45,678 nt of DNA. It comes from a virus. Lineage: Duplodnaviria; Heunggongvirae; Uroviricota; Caudoviricetes. Below the pieces are notes generated by a model, which saw only the letters and a list, made by a program, of their open reading frames with translations, did not search any database and was not told the origin of the DNA. The stretch lies in the IMG/VR virus record IMGVR_UViG_2663763326_000005. One strand, given 5' to 3'. The translations under genes and the position numbers were made by a program. This document shows positions 856 to 36,427 of the stretch, piece by piece; position 1 is the stretch's first letter; each line of letters starts with the position of its first letter.

Positions 856-946
856 CACAACATCCGAGGACAGCAACACCCGATACTTTTTCCTGGCTTC
901 CAGCAACGGGGTTTCTTCCTCCGTTGCATATACAGCTCACCTTTTT

Positions 947-1240
947 TCACCCACGATTAACCAACAGCCAGACCAGCAGACACGCCACCACCGGCACAGC
1001 AAAATCCATCAGGCTTGCCACATCCCAAGCTCGCGGATCAAAACCGCCCCACCACGGCATATTCATTCGCTTGCCATGCCCGAACATTTCAATCCAGCGA
1101 TATTCTGCCTGGGTATGTTCACGCGCAATGAAGAACGTACAACCGGCTATCGCTCCGTAAGCCCAGTTTCCGGTAAAAAGACCAACCAGTATCTGCGCAG
1201 CCACAGCACAAAGTGCATGAAGTAAGGGGCTTATATCCAT
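947..1240 (-). CDS. hypothetical small membrane protein (97 aa, about 3 predicted hydrophobic helices)
   Basis: ORF with hydrophobic segments LLHALCAVAAQILVGLFTG, AYGAIAGCTFFIA and LMDFAVPVVACLLVWLLV. Lies 12 bp downstream of the 92-aa ORF on the same strand. Confidence 0.4.
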   Translation of the reverse strand: MDISPLLHALCAVAAQILVGLFTGNWAYGAIAGCTFFIAREHTQAEYRWIEMFGHGKRMNMPWWGGFDPRAWDVASLMDFAVPVVACLLVWLLVNRG

Positions 1241-1252
1241 TATTTCCTCCTT

Positions 1253-1531
1253 TCAGCTCCATTCCCGAAGCGGTGTTTCCAGCTCCACGACATAATCAGA
1301 GAATACAGAAACATCAAACAAGTCATCAAGAATGCGAATGTTGACAAAATAACCGTCATTCCGGACACAGACAGGTTCTCCCTCTTCTGTTACCCCTGTT
1401 TCTGTGTAGGTGAAACCAATTTCATCGACTAACAGTTTATTCTGGAGGTCTTCATCCTCCTCCCAGTCAAGAGATGACAGGAAGGATTTAAACTCTCTGT
1501 TACCAGGAAATTTCAAAGTTAAATCTTTCAT
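1253..1531 (-). CDS. hypothetical small acidic protein (92 aa), start overlaps tail-fibre stop (ATGA)
   Basis: ORF rich in D/E (DWEEDEDLQNKLLVDEIGFTYTETGVTEEGEP). Its ATG at 1531 overlaps the stop of the upstream tail-fibre gene at 1528-1530. Confidence 0.4.
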   Translation of the reverse strand: MKDLTLKFPGNREFKSFLSSLDWEEDEDLQNKLLVDEIGFTYTETGVTEEGEPVCVRNDGYFVNIRILDDLFDVSVFSDYVVELETPLREWS

Positions 1532-3549
1532 ACTGCCTCCTTGATTTGCCTGTCATTTAATTCTTTAAACCAGACTCTGAAATTTCTGATGTGTCCAAAC
1601 AAATGACGCGTTCCTGCTGCGGTCTGCCCACCAAACCGGTACGATGTTGCTGTAACTCCAAATATTTTACCATTAAGGTTTGTTGTATAATTACCATTGC
1701 ATATTGCATTTACTGATAAATCAGATTTAGCTCTCACACCCACAATGAACCTTTCTCCATCTGAGGCAATTTGTGGCTGAACCATTCCTACGTTGGCGCT
1801 TATCTTTCCTGTTGCAACAAACCCCAGCGATAAATAATTATCATCAATACTGTGCCCTCCAACATCAAATATCCTTGGCGCAACATTGGGCGGTGTACTC
1901 CAGTTCCTGCTTACTTCGCACAATACCGTAAAAGGCCGTGTTGACAGGTTATTCTGCGATGGGATAGTAACTACATCACTTGCGCGTGTTGTTGGCATTG
2001 TAGTTACAATAAATGACGATGCCGTATTGCCCAGTTCAATTTGCGGCGTCGTCATGGTTAATGTTGAGTCATCATAGAATGTCTCATTACTTATTTTATT
2101 TGTCATATAAAAAGCACAGTTAACGGTATCAATGTCCGTATTAGCTGTATAAGTGGCCTCATAGTAGGTCCACTCGCCCTGTTGTTCAGCTTTGGCTGTT
2201 ATAAGGGATGTATTACCGCTTACTGTTGCGATCCGGGTATCCAGATCAAGATAAGAGTCAGCAGAGAAGGTATCTGTTCCACCAATAATAACTGAAACTC
2301 TTAACCTGCATCGTGCTTTAGCGCCTTTAACCCGGCACGAAAAAGTGAAACATTCACCACTTGCCAGCGGGAATCTGTCTGCTGCAACCACACCATGCAC
2401 AGTATAGCCACCTGTTGTTCCCACTATACTTTCCGTGGGTGTCACCGTGGCATAATTGAACCCCTGTTTATCAGTGCCAAATGTTTTATTCAGTGCGGAA
2501 TGAACAGTCCATGAGTCTGGTTTATTTGAGTTCCTCAGATAATTTGTCCTCTGTCCTTCAATCAATAAGCCATCGCGCTCAAATCGCGGTTCGTCAACTT
2601 CAGCAAGCTTGAGTTGGCCGGACTTATTAATATACGTTGCTGTTGAAGCACGTTTAAACTTAACAATCTTGTCGCCTGGCATTGTTATTTCATCGTCACC
2701 AATAACTATCTTTTTATAAGATGGCGAAAAACCCGTAATCATATCCAGTGAATCGTTAAACGGTATCCACACATCAGGCAGCGGCGGCACTATATTCGCA
2801 CAGGGCTCTGCAGTCACTTCCGCTGCGGCTTCTGCGCGGTCTGCCGCCTTTTCAGCTCGTGTCGCTGCCGACAGAGCCTCATCCTTTTTCTGCCCGGCCT
2901 TTGTTGCGTCTGCTGCGGCCTCCCGCGCTTTTGTGGTGGCGACTCCGGCATTTTCAGCGGCTGACTCTGCATTACGGCGGGAAGCCTCTTCACTGTCTGC
3001 GGAGGCTTCTTCTGACGCACGGGCATTTGTCTCTGAACGTTCTGCCGCTGTTGCTGCGTTTTGTGCGGCTGTTTTTGAAGAAGCTGCCGCTTTCGCGCTG
3101 TTACCTGCATTCGTCTCTGATGTTTTCGCCGCGTTCCTGGACGATGCCGCTGCTGTTTCTGATTTCTTTGCTGCCGCTGCGCTCTGAGAGGCGGCTTCAG
3201 CGTTGCGTGCCGCCTCTTCCACCATCTTTTCAAAACGATACAGTGCCTCCGGACAAACATCATCTTCTGTTGCAGCGCCCAGAAAATCATTCAATGTCCC
3301 CGGCTTAGAATCCTCATACACGGTGATGGTCCCGGCATGTGAAGGCGGAAAACCTTCAACCAGCAGGGCGACGCTGTACTGGCCATACTCAACATCCATG
3401 CTGTAACGTCCGGCTTCATCCGGATTTTCTGAGGCCACCGTGTTCACCACAACTGTGGTGCTGTTACGTTTTGCTTTGAGCTGAATGGTGCAGTTCTGTA
3501 TCGGTTTTCCTGCACCGTCTTTCAGCACACCTGAAATCTGTACTGCCAT
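1528..3549 (-). CDS. side tail fiber protein (Stf-like), about 673 aa
   Basis: N-terminus MAVQISGVLKDGAGKPIQNCTIQLKAKRNSTTVVVNTVASENPDEAGRYSMDVEYGQYSV matches the conserved N-terminal domain of lambdoid side tail fibers as I recall them, followed by an Ala/Ser/Thr-rich repetitive shaft. ATG at 3549 is preceded by GGAG; the ORF-track start at 3555 is a GTG. Confidence 0.75.
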   Translation of the reverse strand: MAVQISGVLKDGAGKPIQNCTIQLKAKRNSTTVVVNTVASENPDEAGRYSMDVEYGQYSVALLVEGFPPSHAGTITVYEDSKPGTLNDFLGAATEDDVCPEALYRFEKMVEEAARNAEAASQSAAAAKKSETAAASSRNAAKTSETNAGNSAKAAASSKTAAQNAATAAERSETNARASEEASADSEEASRRNAESAAENAGVATTKAREAAADATKAGQKKDEALSAATRAEKAADRAEAAAEVTAEPCANIVPPLPDVWIPFNDSLDMITGFSPSYKKIVIGDDEITMPGDKIVKFKRASTATYINKSGQLKLAEVDEPRFERDGLLIEGQRTNYLRNSNKPDSWTVHSALNKTFGTDKQGFNYATVTPTESIVGTTGGYTVHGVVAADRFPLASGECFTFSCRVKGAKARCRLRVSVIIGGTDTFSADSYLDLDTRIATVSGNTSLITAKAEQQGEWTYYEATYTANTDIDTVNCAFYMTNKISNETFYDDSTLTMTTPQIELGNTASSFIVTTMPTTRASDVVTIPSQNNLSTRPFTVLCEVSRNWSTPPNVAPRIFDVGGHSIDDNYLSLGFVATGKISANVGMVQPQIASDGERFIVGVRAKSDLSVNAICNGNYTTNLNGKIFGVTATSYRFGGQTAAGTRHLFGHIRNFRVWFKELNDRQIKEAV
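2810..3250 (-). repeat. low-complexity Ala-rich degenerate repeat region inside the tail-fibre gene
   Basis: Protein segment AARNAEAASQSAAAAKKSETAAASSRNAAKTSETNAGNSAKAAASSKTAAQNAATAAERSETNARASEEAS. It creates spurious long ORFs in other frames (2814..3290, 2859..3308, 2933..3187). Confidence 0.5.
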
Positions 3550-3560
3550 ATTCACTCCAC

Positions 3561-3588
3561 AAATAAAAAAGGCACCATTTCTGGTGCC
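3561..3588 (-). terminator. intrinsic terminator between J and the tail-fibre gene
   Basis: Minus strand reads GGCACCA-GAAA-TGGTGCC followed by TTTTTTATTT (plus-strand stem 3571-3577 / 3582-3588, A-run 3561-3570). Confidence 0.7.
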
Positions 3589-3607
3589 CGAATTTGGGTT
3601 TTAAAAT

Positions 3608-24455: not shown

Positions 24456-24917
24456 CTATCTGCACTGCTCATTAATATACTTCTGGGTTCCTTCCAGTTG
24501 TTTTTGCATAGTGATCAGCCTCTCTCTGAGGGTGAAATAATCCCGTTCAGCGGTGTCTGCCAGTCGGGGGGAGGCTGCATTATCCACGCCGGAGGCGGTG
24601 GTGGCTTCACGCACTGACTGACAGACTGCTTTGATGTGCAACCGACGACGACCAGCGGCAACATCATCACGCAGAGCATCATTTTCAGCTTTCGCATCAG
24701 CTAACTCCTTCGTGTATTTTGCATCGAGCGCAGCAACATCACGCTGACGCATCTGTATGTCAGTAATTGCCGCGTTCGCCAGCGTCAGTTCTCTGGCATT
24801 TTTGTCGCGCTGGGCTTTGTAGGTAATCGCGTTATCGCGGTAATGATTAACCGCCCATGAAAGGCAGACGATGACGCAGATAACCAGAGCGGAGATAATC
24901 GCGGTTATTCTGCTCAT
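24456..24917 (-). CDS. Rz: i-spanin Rz
   Basis: [97 protein letters not shown] matches lambda Rz. Confidence 0.9.
24515..24697 (-). CDS. Rz1: o-spanin Rz1 (embedded in Rz, +1 frame)
   Basis: [60 protein letters not shown]; lipobox and proline-rich as lambda Rz1. Confidence 0.85.
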
Positions 24918-25390
24918 ACCTCACTCTCTCTGAGCGTTCCGCCAGCTTCTTTGAATTTTGCAATCAGGCTGTCAGCCTTATGCTCGAACTGACCATAACC
25001 AGCGCCCGGCAGTGAAGCCCAGATATTGCTGCAACGGTCGATTGCCTGACGGATATCACCGCGATCAATCATCGGTAAAGCACCACGCTCTTTAATCTGC
25101 TGTAATGCCACTGCGTCCTGGCTTTTGGGGGAGAAGTCTTTCAAACCAAGCTGTTTACGGTAAGCATCCCACCAGCGTGAAAGAAGCTGATAACGTCCGG
25201 CGGCTGTTGATTTGAGTTTGGGGTGTAGCGTGACAAGTTTGCGAGGGTGATCGGAGTAATCAGTAAACAGTTCGCCGCCAACAATAACATCATAACCGTG
25301 GTTACGTGTCGGTTGTCGCCCGTTATCCGTTCCTTCTGACCACGCCAACATATCGAGGAAGGCTTTACGCTGAGGATTAAGATTTTGCAT
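24914..25390 (-). CDS. R: endolysin R (lytic transglycosylase)
   Basis: [85 protein letters not shown] matches lambda R. Confidence 0.9.
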
Positions 25391-28541: not shown

Positions 28542-29573
28542 ATGAAAATTAACAAGATATTATCATCTGCAACACTATTGTATGGTATGTCAATGGCCAT
28601 GTCGGTCGGGAGTTGTGCAACACCTGTCCAGACTAATCTTCCTGGTTACACCCCGGGTGCAGATATCATTAGTGTTTCACCGACCAGAAACCAGGTCGAT
28701 CTCATTGGTGATGTTGTTTATTCCCAGATAAAAGGAACTCGTTCTGTCAGACAGCTTCACATGTCAGTTCTTGTCCCGCGAACAAATGATTTAAAACCAG
28801 CCATTATTTATTATCCCGGCGGCGGATTCATGTCTTCTGAACATGACAAATTTATTGAAATGAGAATGGCTCTGGCAGAAGCTGGTTTTGTTGTGGCCGC
28901 TGTAGAATACAGAACAATTCCTGATACATTTCCAGCACCAGTTGAGGATGGAAAAGCTGCAATACGTTACCTGAGAGAGCATGCCAGCAATTATGGGATT
29001 GATCCTCAAAGAATCGGAGTTCTGGGTGACTCTGCCGGTGGATGGCTTGCCCAGATGATGGGAACTACAAATGGTGACAAAACCTTTGATAAAGGTGACT
29101 TTCTTCAGCAATCCTCAGATGTTCAGGCAGTTGCCACACTTTATGGGATTTCTGACTTGTTGAATATTGGCGAGGGGTTCCCTGAATCAGTGCAGGAGGT
29201 TCATCGCTCTCCTGCCGTAACCGAAGCCTTAATGATCAATGGCCCTGCATTCAGAAATTTTGCGGGAGCCCCCATCACAGCGTCAAAAGAAAAAGCGCTA
29301 AACGCCAGTCCAATCGGACATATGAAAGGAGTAAAACCCCCATTTCTTATTATGCATGGTAGCAAAGACACTCTGGTTTCACCTGAGCAAAGCGCCAAAC
29401 TATTCAGGATGTTGAAGAAGAACGGTGATAACGCTGAGTACGTGCTGGTAGAAGGGGCCGAGCATGGCGATAAGACATGGTATCAGCCAATTATTATAAA
29501 CAGAGTCGTTGAGTGGTTTACTAAAAACCTGGGAGCGCCTATAAAAACAGCTCCCCAACAACAAAACCCGTAA
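28542..29573 (+). CDS. secreted alpha/beta-hydrolase (esterase/lipase-like), 3-prime end clipped by IS insertion
   Basis: Signal-peptide-like N-terminus MKINKILSSATLLYGMSMAMSVGSCA; oxyanion-hole-like YYPGGGF; nucleophile-elbow-like GDSAGG; later H/D candidates (HGSKDT, AEHGD). The stop TAA (29571-29573) lies inside the IS66 left end. Confidence 0.7.
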   Translation: MKINKILSSATLLYGMSMAMSVGSCATPVQTNLPGYTPGADIISVSPTRNQVDLIGDVVYSQIKGTRSVRQLHMSVLVPRTNDLKPAIIYYPGGGFMSSEHDKFIEMRMALAEAGFVVAAVEYRTIPDTFPAPVEDGKAAIRYLREHASNYGIDPQRIGVLGDSAGGWLAQMMGTTNGDKTFDKGDFLQQSSDVQAVATLYGISDLLNIGEGFPESVQEVHRSPAVTEALMINGPAFRNFAGAPITASKEKALNASPIGHMKGVKPPFLIMHGSKDTLVSPEQSAKLFRMLKKNGDNAEYVLVEGAEHGDKTWYQPIIINRVVEWFTKNLGAPIKTAPQQQNP

Positions 29574-29599: not shown

Positions 29600-31213
29600 T
29601 TATTTATTGGTGAGTACTACGTTCCATGGCAGGAGTTCGTCAACTCGGTTGGAAGGCCATTCCGGCAGTACGCTCAGGATATGGCGCAGATACGCTTCCG
29701 GATCGATACCGTTCAGACGGCAGGTGCCGATCAGCCCGTACAACAGTGCTCCACGCTCGCCGCCGTGATCGCTGCCAAAGAACATAAAGTTTTTCTTTCC
29801 GAGACAGACTGCACGAAGCGCTCTTTCCGCAGCATTATTATCCGCCTCCGCCAGACCGTCATCACTGTAATAACAGAGGGCATCCCACTGATTCAGTACA
29901 TAGCTGAACGCTTCGCCCAGTCTGGATTTTTTCGACAGCGTACCATTCTTCTCCACCATCCATTCATGCAGCGACGTCAGTAACACTTTGCTTCGCTGCT
30001 GCCTGACGGCAAGACGCTCTGACTCCGGTAATCCCCGTATTTCATCCTCGATGGCGTACAGTTCACTGATTCGCTTCAGGGCTTCTTCTGCCGTCGCACT
30101 TTTGCTGCTGATGTATACATCGTGGATTTTTCGCCGGGCATGGGCCCAGCACGCAACTTCTGTCAGTGCACCACCTTCACGTTCTGCACTGAACAACCTG
30201 TCGTAACCTGTGAACGCATCCGCCTGCAGGATACCCCGGAAGGGGCGGAGGTGTTGCTCCGGGTGTTTCCCCTGCCGGTTCGGCGAGTACGCGAACCAGA
30301 CCGCTGGAGGAGATGACGAACCCACATTGCGATCATCCCGGACATACGTCCAGATACGCCCTGTTTTCGCCTTTTTCTGACCCGGTGCCAGTACCTTTAC
30401 CGGTGTGTCATCAGTGTGAACCTTGCGGGTGTTCATTACATAACGGTACAGGGCATCATTCACCGGTGTCATTAACTGGCAGCACGCGTCAACCCAGTTG
30501 GAGAGTAAGGCCCGGCTCAGTTCGACACCCTGGCGGGCAAAGATTTCACTCTGACGATACAGTGGCAGATGTTCGCAGTATTTTCCCGTTAACACGCGGG
30601 CAAGTAATCCGGGGCCCGCGATACCACGCTCTATCGGGCGGGACGGCGCCGGTGCTTCAACAATACAGTCACATTTTGTACAGGCTTTTTTTACCCGTTC
30701 TGTGCGGATCACTTTCAGGGCACTGCTCACCAGTTCCAGCTGTTCAGCGCTGACTTCCCCCAGATAATCCAGCTCACCGCCACACTCCGGGCAACAGCTT
30801 TCTTCTGGCTCCAGGCGGTGTATTTCACGGGGAAGGTGTGCCGGTAACGGACGACGATGGCGCGACTGTCGCAACTGGCGGGGAACCTGAGGATCGTCTT
30901 CCCGCCCACTGTAACGATCGCTGTCCTGTTCACGTTGTTTCAGCAGAGCCTCAGCCAGTTCAACTTCACGACGCAGTTTTTCAGAACGGGTACCGAACAG
31001 CATCCGGCGCAGTTTTTCTATCTGAGCCCGCAGATGTTCTATTTCCCGTTCATCTTCTTCGATCTTTTCTTCGGCACGTGTCAGTGCAGAGCGCAGGAAG
31101 GCTTCCGTCTCTTCAACCAGACTCAGTTGCTGGTCTTTCTGACGGAGGGCTTCAGCCTGCTCAGAGAGCAACCTTTCCAGCTCTGCGATGCGAATGAGGT
31201 ATTTCTGACTCAT
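29600..31213 (-). CDS. IS66-family transposase (TnpC/Orf3)
   Basis: 537-aa ORF with N-terminal coiled-coil/leucine-zipper-like region, Cys cluster (CPECGGEL, CTKCDC) and DDE-type core typical of IS66 transposases. Confidence 0.85.
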   Translation of the reverse strand: MSQKYLIRIAELERLLSEQAEALRQKDQQLSLVEETEAFLRSALTRAEEKIEEDEREIEHLRAQIEKLRRMLFGTRSEKLRREVELAEALLKQREQDSDRYSGREDDPQVPRQLRQSRHRRPLPAHLPREIHRLEPEESCCPECGGELDYLGEVSAEQLELVSSALKVIRTERVKKACTKCDCIVEAPAPSRPIERGIAGPGLLARVLTGKYCEHLPLYRQSEIFARQGVELSRALLSNWVDACCQLMTPVNDALYRYVMNTRKVHTDDTPVKVLAPGQKKAKTGRIWTYVRDDRNVGSSSPPAVWFAYSPNRQGKHPEQHLRPFRGILQADAFTGYDRLFSAEREGGALTEVACWAHARRKIHDVYISSKSATAEEALKRISELYAIEDEIRGLPESERLAVRQQRSKVLLTSLHEWMVEKNGTLSKKSRLGEAFSYVLNQWDALCYYSDDGLAEADNNAAERALRAVCLGKKNFMFFGSDHGGERGALLYGLIGTCRLNGIDPEAYLRHILSVLPEWPSNRVDELLPWNVVLTNK

Positions 31214-31243: not shown

Positions 31244-31594
31244 TTACAACATTGTCAGTGAGTTACGGCTGGATGTTTTTGGCTGACGCCAGTCCAGCTT
31301 ATCGAGGAGCATTGCCAGTTGCGAGCGGGTAATGGATACCTTGCCGTCACGTACCGCAGGCCAGATAAACTGGCCTTCCTCCAGGCGTTTGGTGAACAGG
31401 CACAGACCATCAGCATCAGCCCAAAGAATTTTGACGGTGTCACCCCGTCGGCCACGGAAGATAAACAGGTGACCGGAGAAGGGATTATCATTCAGCACAT
31501 GTTGTACCTGTTCTCCCAGTCCGTTGAAGGATTTACGCATATCGGTAACGCCGGCAACGAGCCAGATACGGGTACCTGATGGGAGTGAGATCAT
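31244..31594 (-). CDS. IS66-family accessory protein TnpB (Orf2)
   Basis: MISLPSGTRIWLVAGVTDMRKSFNGLGEQVQHVLNDNPFSGHLFIFRGRRGDTVKILWADADGLCLFTKRLEEGQFIWP; typical IS66 Orf2. Confidence 0.85.
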   Translation of the reverse strand: MISLPSGTRIWLVAGVTDMRKSFNGLGEQVQHVLNDNPFSGHLFIFRGRRGDTVKILWADADGLCLFTKRLEEGQFIWPAVRDGKVSITRSQLAMLLDKLDWRQPKTSSRNSLTML

Positions 31595-32016
31595 CTTCCC
31601 CTCCCGGTCAGTTCACGGATCAACACTGTGAGCAGCTCTGGCGATGGATTTTCCAGCGTCATGTTACCGTGACGGAATTCCACCTTGCAGGAACTGGCAC
31701 TGACTCTGGTCTGAGTGGAAGTGGATAAAGACGGCGCAATGGCCGCCACAGGTTCTTTCTGCTCATCCGGCGTTATTTCTACAGGTAATAATTCAACGCC
31801 AGTGTCAGAAGAGGTCGTTACCGGAAGACGCCGCGAAACACGCCCTTCGTTCTGCCAGAGCCTGAGCCATTTGAAAATAACATTATCATTGACGCCATTT
31901 TCACGTGCAATCTGTGCAACACAAGCTCCAGGTTGTGATGCCAGTTCCACCATACGAAGTTTGAATTCATTCGAATAGTTTTTACGAGGTTCTTTTCGCC
32001 AGTCCTGTAATTCCAT
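31591..32016 (-). CDS. IS66-family accessory protein TnpA (Orf1)
   Basis: 141-aa ORF with HTH-like segment (ASQPGACVAQIARENGVNDNVIFKWLRLW); overlaps TnpB start (ATGA). Confidence 0.8.
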   Translation of the reverse strand: MELQDWRKEPRKNYSNEFKLRMVELASQPGACVAQIARENGVNDNVIFKWLRLWQNEGRVSRRLPVTTSSDTGVELLPVEITPDEQKEPVAAIAPSLSTSTQTRVSASSCKVEFRHGNMTLENPSPELLTVLIRELTGRGR

Positions 32017-32161: not shown

Positions 32162-35100
32162 TTAACTATCCTTTTCAGGTAGTTTTACAACATAAGTCCT
32201 TATTGTTTTCTCATATGTATTTTTGCTATTCGTTATTTTGGCCTTAATCCAGTGATAACCACTTTCATAGGTGCTGAATTCCGAAGCTGCATTACCTGTC
32301 CAGTGTAACGTTACTGTAGCAGGCTCCATTTTGACCCGTTGAGAGTCTGGACTATCTTCACTACCAGCAGAAAACTCAACCGTACCAGATAATGGGTTTC
32401 CAAAATGATCGACAAATCGAGCATAAATACCTACTGGAGATCCATCGTTTGTCTCATAACCAGGATCTTTTGTTAGAGTCAATACTCCATTTGCGTCATC
32501 AGCGTACAGGGAGAATGATTTCACCGCGCTAACATCACTGCCAAGTTCGTTTAAGGTCGCCGTTAATTTATACGAACCAACCGTTCGACCATGTACGCTT
32601 ACCGTAGCCTGACCGTTCTCATCAGTCGTTACTGTGGTTTTATCAACCACCAACGCACCATATTTAGACGGCCCAGATGTCTTAACATTCAATGCTCGAC
32701 CACTTAATGCTTCGCCTGACTTACTTTTCAACAGTAACGTAAATACCAGATTGTTGGTATCGCTCACTACAGCCGAAGATGCAGATGATGTGATCTCCAA
32801 CACAGCCCCCTTCACATCCGTCACGGCATCAATATTCTGGCTTGCGGTTATGCGTTTCCCATCCAGAACATACTCGGCCTGAATTGTGTACTGGCCTGAT
32901 TTCGATGCAGTGAACTGCGTTGTTGCCTGTCCATGAGCATCCAGTTGCAGATTACTACTGGTCAATGATGCTCCCGTCGATGGTGTAATCGTTAAATCCA
33001 CCTCGCCTGTAAACGCATTGTTATTCGCATCAACCAACTGAATGTTTACTGTTGCGTTTTCACTGCCATCGGCCACAATCTCCTGTTTTGATACACTCAT
33101 ATTCAGTTCTGCAGAAGCAACATCGGGCACAAAAGTTAACTTAACGCTGCCAGATTCCACGCTATGGGAACCGTCAGTCACCCGTGCAGTCACCGTGTAC
33201 TCACCAGCTTTCACCGTTGTAAGCGGAACAGAAACATGCCCTGTTGAATCAGTCACGATATTTGTTGGTACAGATAATCCTTCAGATGAGGTGATGAGCT
33301 GAATCTTTTGCCCATTGACCGACGCATTCGTATTTGTCAGCTGCACATCTAATACCGCTGCATCCTTACCATTAGCAGGAATATTGGAAATTAAACTACT
33401 GCTTTCAGGCGTCAGTGACAGTGAAGCTCCGGTCATATTTGATGCAAAGGTCACTGTTAACTCAGTAGACATCTGAGAACCAGCATGAGCTGTAATCACG
33501 TAAGACCCCGGAGTGGAGCTTATTAACGCAAAAATAGCATTACCATTTTCGTCAGTTGAAACAGCATGTTCACCACCAACTTGAGTTATCCCTGCTGGTA
33601 AAGACAATGTGACAGCATAACCAGGAACAACATTGCCGAAACGGTCCGCAAGGCTTACAGTTACCATATTTCTCTGTTTTCCATCAGCCAATGCATTATT
33701 TTGGCTGGCTTCAAACTGAGAGAATGTAACCTGCTGCCGGTCCTCAATAAAGGTGATTTCTTTCTTAACACCTGAGAAATCATGACTATCAGATTTAACA
33801 CCGATAGTAATCTTACCAGCTCGTTTTGAAGTTACTGTCGCGCTATAGACACCGTCTTTTTCCGTTACAGTCCCAAACTCGACTCCTTCTGCCTGGTTAA
33901 GAGCATAAAAGCTCAGAGTGTTATCACCAGTGATTGCATTTCCTTGTGAATCCTTCACTGCCAGTTGTAGATTGATATTGTAACCAACTACCTGTTCTGC
34001 TGGTGCAGCGGTTAAAACAGCACTGACCTCAGAATCAGGTTCTGTTGTTGCTGTTTGCTTAATACTGAGAGTAAATGTTTTTCCCTGAACTTTTGCAGTT
34101 ACACGTACCGTACCAGCCTGCGAACCAGCAGCCAGAACAGAGCGATATACCCCAGCAGAGATTTCCTCTACCGCGCCTAATGACGGAGCAGTTACCGTTT
34201 CACGCTGTCGAGCACTATTGCTATCTGCTGTAAATTCCACTGACATTTCAATGTCATCAGCCAGTCCGGTTAATGCCTTACCGTTACTATCTTTCAGGCT
34301 TAATACTATCGGATAAGTGGATTGGCTATCAGCAGAGATCGTCGGCGACGAATCTCCATCCAGTGTAAAAGACGAATCAGCTGTCGATACATCACTATCA
34401 GTAATGGCTGCCTGCTTAATATTCAGAGTAAAGGTTTTTCCCTGAACTTTTGCAGTTACACGTACCGTACCAGCCTGCGAACCAGCAGCCAGAACAGAGC
34501 GATATACACCAGCAGAGATTTCCTCTACCGCGCCTAATGACGGAGCAGTTACCGTTTCACGCTGTCGAGCACTATTGCTATCTGCTGTAAATTCCACTGA
34601 CATTTCAATGTCATCAGCCAGTCCGGTTAATGCCTTACCGTTACTATCTTTCAGGCTTAATACTATCGGATAAGTGGATTGGCTATCAGCAGAGATCGTC
34701 GGCGACGAATCTCCATCCAGTGTAAAAGACGAATCAGCTGTCGATACATCACTATCAGTAATGGCTGCCTGCTTAATATTCAGAGTAAAGGTTTTTCCCT
34801 GAACTTTTGCAGTTACACGTACCGTACCAGCCTGCGAACCAGCAGTCAGAACAGAGCGATATACCCCAGCAGAGATTTCCTCTACCGCGCCTAATGACGG
34901 AGCAGTTACCGTTTCACGCTGTCGAGCACTATTGCTATCTGCTGTAAATTCCACTGACATTTCAATGTCATCAGCCAGTCCGGTTAATGCCTTACCGTTA
35001 CTATCTTTCAGGCTTAATACTATCGGATAAGTGGATTGGCTATCAGCAGAGATTGTCGGCGACGAATCTCCATCCAGTGTAAAAGACGAATCAGCCGTCG

Positions 35101-36427
35101 AGACACCACTATCAGTAACGCTAATATTCATCACGGCATAGTTGGAAACGTTGCCTCTGTTATCCTGTACTGTGGCTCCAACATTCCACGAATTTACACC
35201 TTCGCTTTTATAAGCCGGTAAAGTGATCTGCCATGATGTGCCATTTCCACTGATCTTGCCGCCAGCCGCAGTGAATGCACTATCATTCCACTGTACAGAC
35301 TTGATACCACCACTAGCATTGTTGATTGTCAGTGTTACAGGGATGATTGATTCCCCCTCCCCCTGAACAGACTCTGGCAAACTGATTTTCAGTGCATGCT
35401 TCTTCTTGTACTCCAGAACAATGTTGTTATTTCGTTCAACAAAATCATAACGCCGGTTCTGGACTTCTCGCATAACTGCAACATTATCGCTGCTAAGCTG
35501 TTCAGCCAAGGAAACGCCCGGGCGATAATTAAACTCAACACCAAAGGTTGTATCGTGAGTGTTGCTCTGTCCTTGCTTATGCTGTGCAGAAAACTTAATC
35601 AGAGGAACTGGTGTATAAGAAATTCCCCCAGTAACTGCGTAAGGGTTTTCCTGCAGGTTATCGCTTCCAAATAACCCGACATTTTTACCATAATATTTTT
35701 CAAACTGAATAGATGCCCCTAATTGCGGATAAGCAGGTAGCCATCCTTCAGCAGAAAAATCCCAGCCATTTGCAGGTCTTTCCAGATAATCATCAATATC
35801 ACGACTGTTCTTCCAGTCAGATAGACCAAAATAGGTATTTACACCAAGCCTGAAATAATCCCTCCAGTACTCAACCCCAAAACCTGCACGAGAGTGACTA
35901 CGACTTAAATCGTAATCATAGAAAACATTCGCACCCAACATTGCGTTATCAGGAGTGAAATGACGAATCCCCAAACCAATATTGGTCTGATTTCGGTCAT
36001 CAGTACGATGTAGTGATGTCTGACTGAATAACACATAATCCTGAGTATCCAGCCATGGATATAAAAAGTCGAATGATGAATCCTTCAAGGAAAAAGAATC
36101 ATCGACATTAAGCTTGATGCGCGCATTGCCATATTGTTGCAACCAGTCGACGACCTCTTTTGTCGCCTGAGTTGATAAAGTATTTACAGCAAAACTACTT
36201 GCATTATTATTCGCCAGGCTCTGACCTGCACTTGCTGCAAATGAGGCCACTTTATTTGCATGCTCATCGCTGGCATAAATTTGCGTAACATCTTTATTAC
36301 CAGATGATGCAAAACTGTTTGCTGGGATCAAAGAAAGAGAAACTGGAGATAATATCTGGGTAACAATTACCGACCATGTAATCGCGCCAGATGCAGTTTT
36401 TTTTAACTTTTTATTCACAGTGGTCAT
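32162..36427 (-). CDS. inverse autotransporter adhesin (intimin/invasin family), 1421 aa, with Ig-like repeats
   Basis: N-terminal signal/anchor, then a beta-barrel-like region (DFLYPWLDTQDYVLFSQTSLHRTDDRNQTNIGLGIRHF.., GFGVEYWRDYFRLGVNTYF, EGWLPAYPQLGASIQFEKYYG), then a long series of Ig-like passenger repeats including three near-identical 119-aa units. AT-rich upstream region. Confidence 0.8.
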   Translation of the reverse strand: MTTVNKKLKKTASGAITWSVIVTQILSPVSLSLIPANSFASSGNKDVTQIYASDEHANKVASFAASAGQSLANNNASSFAVNTLSTQATKEVVDWLQQYGNARIKLNVDDSFSLKDSSFDFLYPWLDTQDYVLFSQTSLHRTDDRNQTNIGLGIRHFTPDNAMLGANVFYDYDLSRSHSRAGFGVEYWRDYFRLGVNTYFGLSDWKNSRDIDDYLERPANGWDFSAEGWLPAYPQLGASIQFEKYYGKNVGLFGSDNLQENPYAVTGGISYTPVPLIKFSAQHKQGQSNTHDTTFGVEFNYRPGVSLAEQLSSDNVAVMREVQNRRYDFVERNNNIVLEYKKKHALKISLPESVQGEGESIIPVTLTINNASGGIKSVQWNDSAFTAAGGKISGNGTSWQITLPAYKSEGVNSWNVGATVQDNRGNVSNYAVMNISVTDSGVSTADSSFTLDGDSSPTISADSQSTYPIVLSLKDSNGKALTGLADDIEMSVEFTADSNSARQRETVTAPSLGAVEEISAGVYRSVLTAGSQAGTVRVTAKVQGKTFTLNIKQAAITDSDVSTADSSFTLDGDSSPTISADSQSTYPIVLSLKDSNGKALTGLADDIEMSVEFTADSNSARQRETVTAPSLGAVEEISAGVYRSVLAAGSQAGTVRVTAKVQGKTFTLNIKQAAITDSDVSTADSSFTLDGDSSPTISADSQSTYPIVLSLKDSNGKALTGLADDIEMSVEFTADSNSARQRETVTAPSLGAVEEISAGVYRSVLAAGSQAGTVRVTAKVQGKTFTLSIKQTATTEPDSEVSAVLTAAPAEQVVGYNINLQLAVKDSQGNAITGDNTLSFYALNQAEGVEFGTVTEKDGVYSATVTSKRAGKITIGVKSDSHDFSGVKKEITFIEDRQQVTFSQFEASQNNALADGKQRNMVTVSLADRFGNVVPGYAVTLSLPAGITQVGGEHAVSTDENGNAIFALISSTPGSYVITAHAGSQMSTELTVTFASNMTGASLSLTPESSSLISNIPANGKDAAVLDVQLTNTNASVNGQKIQLITSSEGLSVPTNIVTDSTGHVSVPLTTVKAGEYTVTARVTDGSHSVESGSVKLTFVPDVASAELNMSVSKQEIVADGSENATVNIQLVDANNNAFTGEVDLTITPSTGASLTSSNLQLDAHGQATTQFTASKSGQYTIQAEYVLDGKRITASQNIDAVTDVKGAVLEITSSASSAVVSDTNNLVFTLLLKSKSGEALSGRALNVKTSGPSKYGALVVDKTTVTTDENGQATVSVHGRTVGSYKLTATLNELGSDVSAVKSFSLYADDANGVLTLTKDPGYETNDGSPVGIYARFVDHFGNPLSGTVEFSAGSEDSPDSQRVKMEPATVTLHWTGNAASEFSTYESGYHWIKAKITNSKNTYEKTIRTYVVKLPEKDS
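34050..35120. repeat. three near-perfect direct tandem repeats of 357 bp inside the adhesin gene
   Basis: The same string (e.g. gcttaat.. at 34057, 34414, 34771) recurs with a 357-bp period. It encodes DSGVSTADSSFTLDGDSSPTISADSQSTYPIVLSLKDSNGKALTGLADDIEMSVEFTADSNSARQRETVTAPSLGAVEEISAGVYRSVL.. three times and produces identical spurious plus-strand ORFs at 34322, 34679 and 35036. Confidence 0.9.

Follow-up and report, generated by a model that had tools for sequence, protein, structure and literature searches.

A fibre-linked acidic protein and a widespread small membrane protein encoded side by side behind the side tail fibre gene of a lambda-type prophage

Dedicated chaperones are encoded directly after the fibre gene in several cases, namely lambda Tfa, Mu U and P2 G (Caudo_TAP), Pam3 gp25 and the Alteromonas V22/A5 chaperones. 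Other genes at the edge of receptor-binding modules have small envelope-located products. The T5 llp gene lies beside the pb5 gene, cor follows the tail fibre genes of phi80/N15/T1-type phages, and genes 21-23 of epsilon15 form a conversion cassette beside the tailspike. Here we describe two small genes, p92 and p97, that follow the side tail fibre gene stf in the 45,678-nucleotide virus record IMGVR_UViG_2663763326_000005 (Caudoviricetes), the whole of which is called the window below. The window is a nearly complete E. coli prophage of the lambda type; sitD stands at its left end and the integrase at its right end, and the tail, head, lysis and early genes follow one another in between. p92, which like the chaperone genes comes directly after the fibre, encodes a 92-residue acidic protein and starts on the stf stop codon in an ATGA overlap; p97 follows after a 12-nucleotide gap and encodes a 97-residue membrane protein. 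These features had been reported in an initial annotation made from the sequence alone, and all of them were confirmed.

The explanation that we find best overall, and on which our judgement is evenly balanced, is that p92 and p97 are adjacent but come from two different modules, one being a fibre helper and the other an envelope-acting cassette. The two genes are not regarded as a pair because they occur separately, differ in base composition and evolutionary rate, are parted by inserted genes in other prophages and match no defence model. Both are real genes and not chance open reading frames (ORFs), given their full-length PHROG matches and their conservation in hundreds of genomes. The annotation of phage 21 lists p92 as a "hypothetical protein" and p97 as a "putative membrane protein", and the corresponding E. 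coli RefSeq entries (WP_000654172 and WP_000355360) are both named "hypothetical protein". Our literature searches returned nothing on either of them.

The p92 protein and its link to the tail fibre

p92 is a small and acidic cytoplasmic protein with 22 Asp and Glu residues against 8 Lys and Arg residues and an isoelectric point of 4.05. Its AlphaFold2 (AF2) model has a β-α-α-β-β topology with a mean predicted local distance difference test (pLDDT) score of 90.6. The protein matches phrog_1361 over residues 1-91 of 92 (E 1.6e-39) and phrog_18574 over residues 1-92 (E 1.2e-5); both of these PHROGs, as well as phrog_1443 discussed below, are without functional annotation. The initial annotation had seen no canonical tail-fibre assembly gene at this place, and profile searches agree, since neither ORF gave a Caudo_TAP or other Pfam or NCBIfam family match, LUD_dom at E 0.1 being the only hit in the Pfam scan of p92 (E up to 1). 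The predicted fold is not similar to the solved structure of Mu Tfa (PDB 5YVQ), a sequence search of the PDB with the p92-family profile found no match, and a Foldseek search against BFVD returned uncharacterised phage proteins only. Lambda Tfa and the Alteromonas chaperones would be analogues of p92, unrelated to it.

A first search for p92 homologues yielded 45 clusters, all from E. coli and Shigella, and a narrow p92 profile did not reach homologues from Comamonas. The link to Comamonas was made via PHROG 18574, phmmer and hhalign. A 95-residue Comamonas protein matches phrog_18574 with an E-value of 2.4e-11, and a profile built from the Comamonas proteins aligns with the p92 profile at equivalent columns (hhalign E 0.0015). 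The joint alignment runs from end to end with nine invariant positions, and a search with it returned 207 clusters. Homologues of the Comamonas type have 91-95 residues. Within E. coli, a near-identical p92 allele class is found in about 21% of complete genomes. Some homologues carry about 90 extra residues at the C-terminus (phrog_6034/14311, unannotated), a region that reads as helical from its sequence. The fibre chaperone gp25 of Pam3 has a two-domain layout (PMC9608196), and these longer p92 homologues resemble it in combining an N-terminal fibre-side domain with a C-terminal extension. The fused form was seen in Comamonas-type prophages at loci L105 (5432-5998), L112 (5432-5998), L101 (5484-5999) and L233 (4001-4531); at L231 the same region is split into two ORFs.

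The stf product is identified as a side tail fibre by matches to Pfam phage_tail_N (E 2.8e-67), phrog_1419 (E 2e-294) and phrog_5939 (E 8.8e-57), and residues 331-525 match the NCBIfam GTA_spike_fiber domain (E 7.5e-18). An attachment domain at its N-terminus and a motif at its C-terminus are conserved; between them lie an Ala-rich shaft and a hypervariable jelly-roll region. The hypervariable region (residues ~360-630) is about 25% identical to that of phage 21, whereas the last ~50 residues are 73% identical. A sequence search of the PDB with the C-terminal half of the protein found no match; a homologous fibre has a weak precomputed Pfam Laminin_G_3 match. In E. coli 4/1-1 (locus L002, 5527-7548), RefSeq renders the intact stf ORF as two pseudogene fragments, one labelled "head spike fiber domain" and the other "tail fiber N-terminal domain"; the probable cause is that no model covers the Ala/Ser/Thr-rich repeat of the shaft. 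Intact side fibre genes may be under-reported in this way across many E. coli genomes.

Across 218 related loci, p92 always came together with the stf C-terminal domain, and every E. coli locus with this domain has a p92-like ORF; five loci that seemed to lack one carry a divergent version of 89 residues that starts on the fibre stop codon. The identity of p92 follows that of the last ~50 stf residues and not that of the hypervariable region: p92 is 90-93% identical between the window and phage 21, and when other fibre types are compared both the fibre end and p92 fall to 50-60%. The G+C content (GC) is 41.9% for p92, 42.5% for the C-terminal half of stf and 52.7% for p97. On the basis of identity tracking and GC, the distal half of stf and p92 look like one exchange unit, with p97 outside it. 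In its specificity for one fibre-tip class and its exchange together with the C-terminal part of the fibre, p92 resembles the Tfa-type chaperones.

The same arrangement is observed beyond E. coli. In a Comamonas kerstersii prophage (L092), a 388-residue tail protein (PHROGs 5939/1419) that ends in "...ISRVALYSRTLTTQNVQRLTA" is followed by an ATGA-overlapping gene for a 95-residue acidic protein, an overlapping p97 homologue, and then a holin-like gene, an M15 endolysin gene and Rz/Rz1. Metagenomic prophages show the recurrent order GpJ, a protein of about 250 residues, a fibre of about 405 residues with a weak Laminin_G_3 match, p92-like gene, p97-like gene and lysis genes. In more distant viral contigs, p92-like genes follow such fibres and p97 is absent. 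The start of the p92-like gene overlaps the upstream long ORF by 1 or 4 nucleotides in all 22 distinct pairs, and these upstream ORFs usually end in "...GHIRNxRIWHxxLTxxQI..." or "...RLTA". A conserved end motif recurs in 17 to 22 of the 22 distinct fibres that precede p92-like ORFs. A strict regular expression matched 8/22 and a looser one, written after the sequences had been viewed, 17/22; this looser pattern is descriptive only.

The p97 family and its genomic settings

p97 matches phrog_1443 over residues 1-96 of 97 (E 2.4e-58). The AF2 model consists of three helices (residues 4-23, 26-52 and 74-96) with a mean pLDDT of 93. The three transmembrane segments proposed by the initial annotation are plausible in the light of this model; hydropathy, by contrast, gives two clearly hydrophobic segments and a weaker middle one, and the annotators of phage 21 obtained only two transmembrane domains with TMHMM. 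Charge counts favour a cytoplasmic central loop (5.4 Lys+Arg), whereas the basic C-terminal tails and the TMHMM call oppose it. A 29-residue signal peptide given by SignalP in the phage 21 annotation was rejected, as the segment has no positive n-region and contains His8, which is 92% conserved.

The most conserved part of the protein is a polar loop and not the transmembrane helices. A near-invariant polar motif comprises H8, R40-E41, Q44-A45-E46-Y47-R48, P62-W63, W72, D79 and P83, and among 220 relatives H8, R40, E41, Q44-R48, R58, P62, W72, D79 and P83 are conserved in 86-99%. The helix geometry suggests that H8, R40/E41 and D79 share a similar depth at one face of the membrane. Pfam and NCBIfam scans of p97 found no family match and a PDB sequence search with the p97-family profile found none either. 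A Pfam scan of 42 diverse relatives gave no meaningful match; 1 of the 42 has a weak hit to Phage_holin_8 (E 0.0036). No GtrA, glycosyltransferase or acyltransferase profile was hit by p97 (Pfam, NCBIfam) or by the 42 relatives (Pfam), and the PHROG annotation of p97 indicates neither lysis nor exclusion.

The family comprises 577 clusters at 90% identity and 442 at 50%, and all members are stand-alone proteins of about 95-105 residues. Homologues from Aeromonas, Leclercia, Silvania, Comamonas and Acidovorax are 56-64% identical to p97; for those from Aeromonas, Leclercia and Comamonas the range is 57-63%. Among 5426 complete E. coli genomes, 1903 (35%) carry p97, the median copy number being two and the highest seven. 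In IMG/VR, p97 has 439 matches, of which the best 80 were covered here.

In phages, p97 is found beside receptor-binding genes in siphovirus, myovirus, podovirus and large-phage settings. It follows stf and p92 in lambdoid phages and in one phage-plasmid, and comes after a fibre ending in an S74 domain (Pfam) in an HP1/P2-like Leclercia prophage (L138). In Comamonas testosteroni it follows a giant GpJ. Halomonas phage phiHAP-1, also of the HP1/P2-like kind, has it between a fibre assembly gene and the sheath gene, at what we take to be the P2 Z/fun accessory site. It lies between two tailspike genes on a 160-kb Salmonella contig (L139) from a multi-tailspike phage or prophage, between tailspike and fibre genes in Cobetia phage Carin-5, and, in Aeromonas phage ACP1 (236 kb), between two large genes that resemble fibre genes. 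Phage Gally, which is P22-like, has it between tailspike and integrase. The tailspike is followed there by a terminator with a strong hairpin and then by an AT-rich stretch that contains a promoter-like site, and p97 itself is preceded by an AAGGAG site. Judged by these elements, Gally p97 appears to be a typical, self-contained moron. P22 and epsilon34 carry gtrABC at the matching place (PMC2629481).

p97 also occurs as a lone chromosomal gene whose neighbours are conserved, with syntenic copies in several species of Aeromonas and of Leclercia. It is located between the pirin and RIO1 kinase genes in several Aeromonas species (L004 8001-11645, L089, L091, L095 and L096), upstream of a MetE-like gene in Leclercia, near a porin gene in Silvania, and near pnp, recN or ligA in sphingomonads. 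The initial annotation had named, as one half of a possible refutation, that the membrane protein was a conserved host gene unrelated to the phage. The conserved chromosomal copies in these four groups go in that direction, but p97 is clearly also a phage gene, and we rejected the reading as a plain host gene in view of its presence in cultured phages. At L004, two genes for lipid A acyltransferases (LpxL/M-like) are located about 1.2 kb away from p97, which could be a coincidence or a hint of a connection with envelope lipids. In Aeromonas molluscorum (L090, 6001-7358) and on a JGI metagenome contig (L137, 1395-2913), p97 homologues stand in the surroundings of a mobile element; the neighbours are MqsA/HigA-type antitoxin, RelE-type toxin, Fic and transposase genes, with no visible phage tail genes.

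p97 is comparable to llp, cor and gtrABC in its position at the edge of a receptor-binding module and in having a small envelope-located product. Llp and Cor, unlike p97, are lipoproteins directed at one receptor (FhuA) with a narrow distribution, and the Gtr proteins are recognisable enzymes or flippases. p97 has no match to any of these and differs from them in its many unrelated receptor-binding partners, its far stronger conservation and its chromosomal copies. T4 Imm, HK97 gp15 and P22 SieA are likewise small inner-membrane proteins encoded by accessory phage genes. Each of them evolves fast and is confined to a lineage. The conservation of p97, by contrast, extends across proteobacterial classes, and poly-lysogens have up to seven copies of it. 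No homology of p97 to this type of exclusion protein was found by PHROG annotation or PADLOC.

Proposed roles and alternatives

We propose that p92 is probably an assembly helper that binds the fibre end. Its translation would be coupled to the end of fibre genes whose products have a LamG/ConA-like C-terminal motif, and it would bind the conserved C-terminal end of newly made fibre subunits. Bound p92 would then help this particular fibre to fold or trimerise, or would cap it transiently, so that it would be a functional analogue of lambda Tfa on an unrelated fold. Of the two readings of the locus that the initial annotation had offered, a non-canonical fibre chaperone next to a membrane exclusion protein comes closer. 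p92 is tightly and specifically linked to the fibre by coupling, GC, co-variation and synteny, while chaperone activity as such is a prediction; p97 is a phage-borne membrane protein at a site typical of exclusion or conversion genes, and exclusion as such is likewise a prediction.

The main alternative is that p92 stays on the fibre as a cap. The same linkage would also be expected if p92 were a structural cap or adaptor of the fibre tip in virus particles, or if it were an inhibitor that keeps the lectin-like tip masked inside the cell until release. Lambda Tfa has been reported to stay in virions (PMC7291167) and the Alteromonas fibre chaperones have been proposed to be transient caps (PMC10579305), both of which count in favour of such a role. 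We nevertheless consider it rather unlikely, as p92 varies far less than the receptor-binding region does (identity with phage 21 is 90-93% for p92 and ~25% for that region). For the same reason p92 is not the adhesin.

For p97, our best guess is an envelope-acting role in exclusion or conversion. p97 would be a self-contained cassette encoding a three-helix inner-membrane protein with an invariant polar cluster at one membrane face. Its place of action would be the cell envelope, and its target would be a conserved host component (a protein or a lipid-linked intermediate) rather than the virion. Its effect would be an altered display of receptors or altered phage entry. An envelope role is suggested by the position of p97, the moron architecture in Gally, the host copies, and a degree of conservation that fits a conserved target. 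As to the specific activity, entry exclusion is a tentative candidate, and interference with, or modification of, a conserved envelope-glycan step is a doubtful one; the larger share of the odds goes to other activities.

Several observations weigh against these proposals. The co-variation of p92 with the fibre end could reflect mere physical linkage. p97 has no promoter of its own in the window and would be made with the late genes, and in Comamonas-type phages it is translationally coupled within the late operon. In large phages it lies between fibre genes, and no lysogeny genes were seen in the stretches examined; lysogenic conversion is therefore not its sole role. An E. coli genome can have up to seven near-identical copies of p97, which argues against the exclusion of p97-carrying phages, and to our knowledge sequence conservation as strong as that of p97 is unusual among exclusion proteins. 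The topology differs between predictions, with two transmembrane domains by TMHMM and three helices by AF2. Finally, no homology of p97 to characterised proteins was found in Pfam, NCBIfam, PADLOC or the PDB.

A role of p97 in virion morphogenesis, as a membrane-anchored factor for the maturation, modification or release of receptor-binding proteins, appears improbable to us. The receptor-binding genes that p97 consistently adjoins encode very different folds, and this constancy of position speaks for such a factor; the lack of any common fold among its neighbours speaks against it. p97 is co-transcribed or coupled with these genes in several phage types, large phages included, and it often comes directly after proteins that end in an S74 domain (by Pfam in the Leclercia prophage, elsewhere as read from the sequence). 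In Gally, however, it is cut off from the tailspike by the terminator and has its own promoter-like site, and the lone copies at conserved chromosomal loci have no phage partner. We also know of no fibre or tailspike that needs a membrane factor.

It is very improbable that p97 is a lysis protein, such as a class I-like holin, an antiholin or a lysis-timing factor. Small size and three helices would suit a holin, but p97 relatives are generally without a long charged C-terminal tail and are most conserved in the polar loop; the single weak Phage_holin_8 match mentioned above is the only profile that points this way. p97 lies directly upstream of the holin-endolysin-spanin cassette in Comamonas-type prophages, but these phages have holin-like genes of their own after p97, and in the window the lysis genes are about 23 kb away. 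The location among fibre and tailspike genes in P2/HP1-like, P22-like and large phages also speaks against a lysis protein, and a holin would hardly be expected to have syntenic chromosomal copies of the kind seen in Aeromonas.

The relation between the two genes can be followed through the related loci. p92 and p97 are contiguous in 156 of the 218. In many E. coli prophages an ORF of 227-346 residues is inserted between the p92-like gene and p97 (for example L086 4918-5958, L048 4286-4990 and L057 4307-4990). The inserted ORFs have a short coiled-coil N-terminus, and their C-terminal part reads as a Peptidase_S74 intramolecular-chaperone-like domain; the 346-residue one belongs to phrog_4563, annotated "tail fiber protein". 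They may be very short second fibres or free-standing chaperone domains. p97 is 95-100% identical where p92 is only 50% identical, and it is 95-97% identical in the prophages with the inserted ORF. A search of PADLOC-DB (E up to 1) matched 0 families for p92 or p97. The adjacency seen here reflects the habit of p97 of lying at the outer edge of receptor-binding modules. The second reading in the initial annotation, a two-gene defence or immunity pair, is thus unsupported. More generally, that p92 and p97 form one two-gene system (defence or immunity, toxin-antidote or sensor-effector cargo at the end of the tail module) is highly improbable, since their closeness in the window and at most other loci, Comamonas-type prophages included, and the conceivable electrostatic contact between acidic p92 and the conserved p97 loop with its ~5 Lys/Arg residues are set against the lack of p92 in most lineages that have p97, the lone chromosomal copies of p97, p92-like genes without p97 in many phages, the 11-point GC break between the two, the insertion of fibre-like ORFs, the near-identity of p97 where p92 diverges, and the lack of a PADLOC match.

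Layout of the window and significance

The features of the locus are listed in Table 1. The ATGA overlap provides translational coupling of stf to p92, and the reverse complement of the spacer before p97, AAGGAGGAAATA, is a strong Shine-Dalgarno site. A sequence scan of the window found no promoter-like or terminator-like site between stf and p97. In the convergent region beyond p97, no canonical intrinsic terminator was found, and the RNA fold z-score there is only -1.98. A terminator-like hairpin at 3570-3589 on the minus strand, with an 8-bp stem followed by TTTTTATTTG, is located after J and ahead of stf, and the annotation of phage 21 has a terminator at the same place. As a consequence of this hairpin, stf, p92 and p97 would need antiterminated late transcription. 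Two plus-strand ORFs, 519-1160 (213 residues) and 785-1225 (146 residues), were rejected as genes. They are antisense shadows of p97 that reach the end of sitD, and their tblastn conservation across loci is only the mirror of that of p97.

Table 1. Coordinates of stf, p92, p97 and adjoining features in the window.
Feature	Position	Strand	Basis
stf, side tail fibre gene, 675 aa	1528-3555	-	phage_tail_N, phrog_1419, phrog_5939, GTA_spike_fiber
Last ~50 codons of stf (...GTRHLFGHIRNFRVWFKELNDRQIKEAV), conserved C-terminal motif	1528-1680	-	Identity comparison
ATGA overlap of stf stop and p92 start	1528-1531	-	Window strand reads "tcat"
p92, 92-aa acidic protein	1253-1531	-	phrog_1361, phrog_18574, AF2
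12-nt spacer with AAGGAGG ribosome-binding site of p97	1241-1252	-	Sequence read
p97, 97-aa membrane protein	947-1240	-	phrog_1443, AF2
Convergent intergenic region between p97 end and sitD end (sitD on plus strand)	856-946	.	ORF layout

The GC of the whole window is 51.2%. Bases 800-1700 are 100% identical to Escherichia phages 1H12 and Lambda_2E9, among others, and 95% identical to phage 21. Over 8 kb, the only differences between the window and E. coli strain 4/1-1 are three single-base homopolymer indels, at 289 (T7 against T6, in sitD), 4172 (G4 against G5, in J) and 5409 (C4 against C5, in J). These split sitD into two ORFs and J into three, and they are either homopolymer sequencing errors or true inactivating frameshifts. 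An Rz-like spanin is encoded at 24456-24917, about 23 kb from p97; a 158-residue ORF beside it (the pair spans 24456-25390) is taken as the endolysin without a profile scan. Further cargo lies between the late-gene regulator region and the replication genes and consists of an adhesin, an IS66-family element and an esterase (32162-36427, 29600-31213 and 31591-32016 on the minus strand, and 28542-29573 on the plus strand). The adhesin is a 1421-residue inverse autotransporter with IAT_beta and Invasin_D3/Big_1 repeats, of intimin/invasin-like type, and the esterase is of the BD-FAE/alpha-beta-hydrolase type.

Both genes are common and present in the databases as hypothetical proteins, and the sequence feature itself is therefore not new. 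The novelty lies in assigning p92, as a non-Tfa accessory family, to one type of fibre, and in recognising p97 as a separate pan-proteobacterial family that is associated with receptor-binding genes and has no curated model. A bolder joint reading can be formulated, although as a whole we regard it as a long shot. p97 would be a new pan-proteobacterial family of miniature inner-membrane proteins, and its invariant His-Arg-Glu-(Gln/Glu/Tyr/Arg)-Asp cluster, at one membrane face, would serve in catalysis or in the binding of a ligand. Phages of all three tail morphologies would carry it beside their receptor-binding genes and use it to reprogram a universal step of envelope biogenesis, for example the handling of undecaprenyl-phosphate-linked glycans; the cell surface met by fibres and tailspikes would change, and Aeromonas and Leclercia would keep p97 for the same reaction. 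p92, for its part, would be the first of a new class of chaperones that serve LamG-type fibre tips.

If p92 does chaperone LamG-ended side fibres, retargeting lambda-type particles by fibre swap would have to move p92 as well. The present analysis gives a testable role to a common "hypothetical protein" with relatives in beta-proteobacterial phages. p97 is so small, so conserved and so consistently placed that it probably touches a basic envelope process, and its family is thus a good experimental target that can be approached by simple expression and phage challenge.

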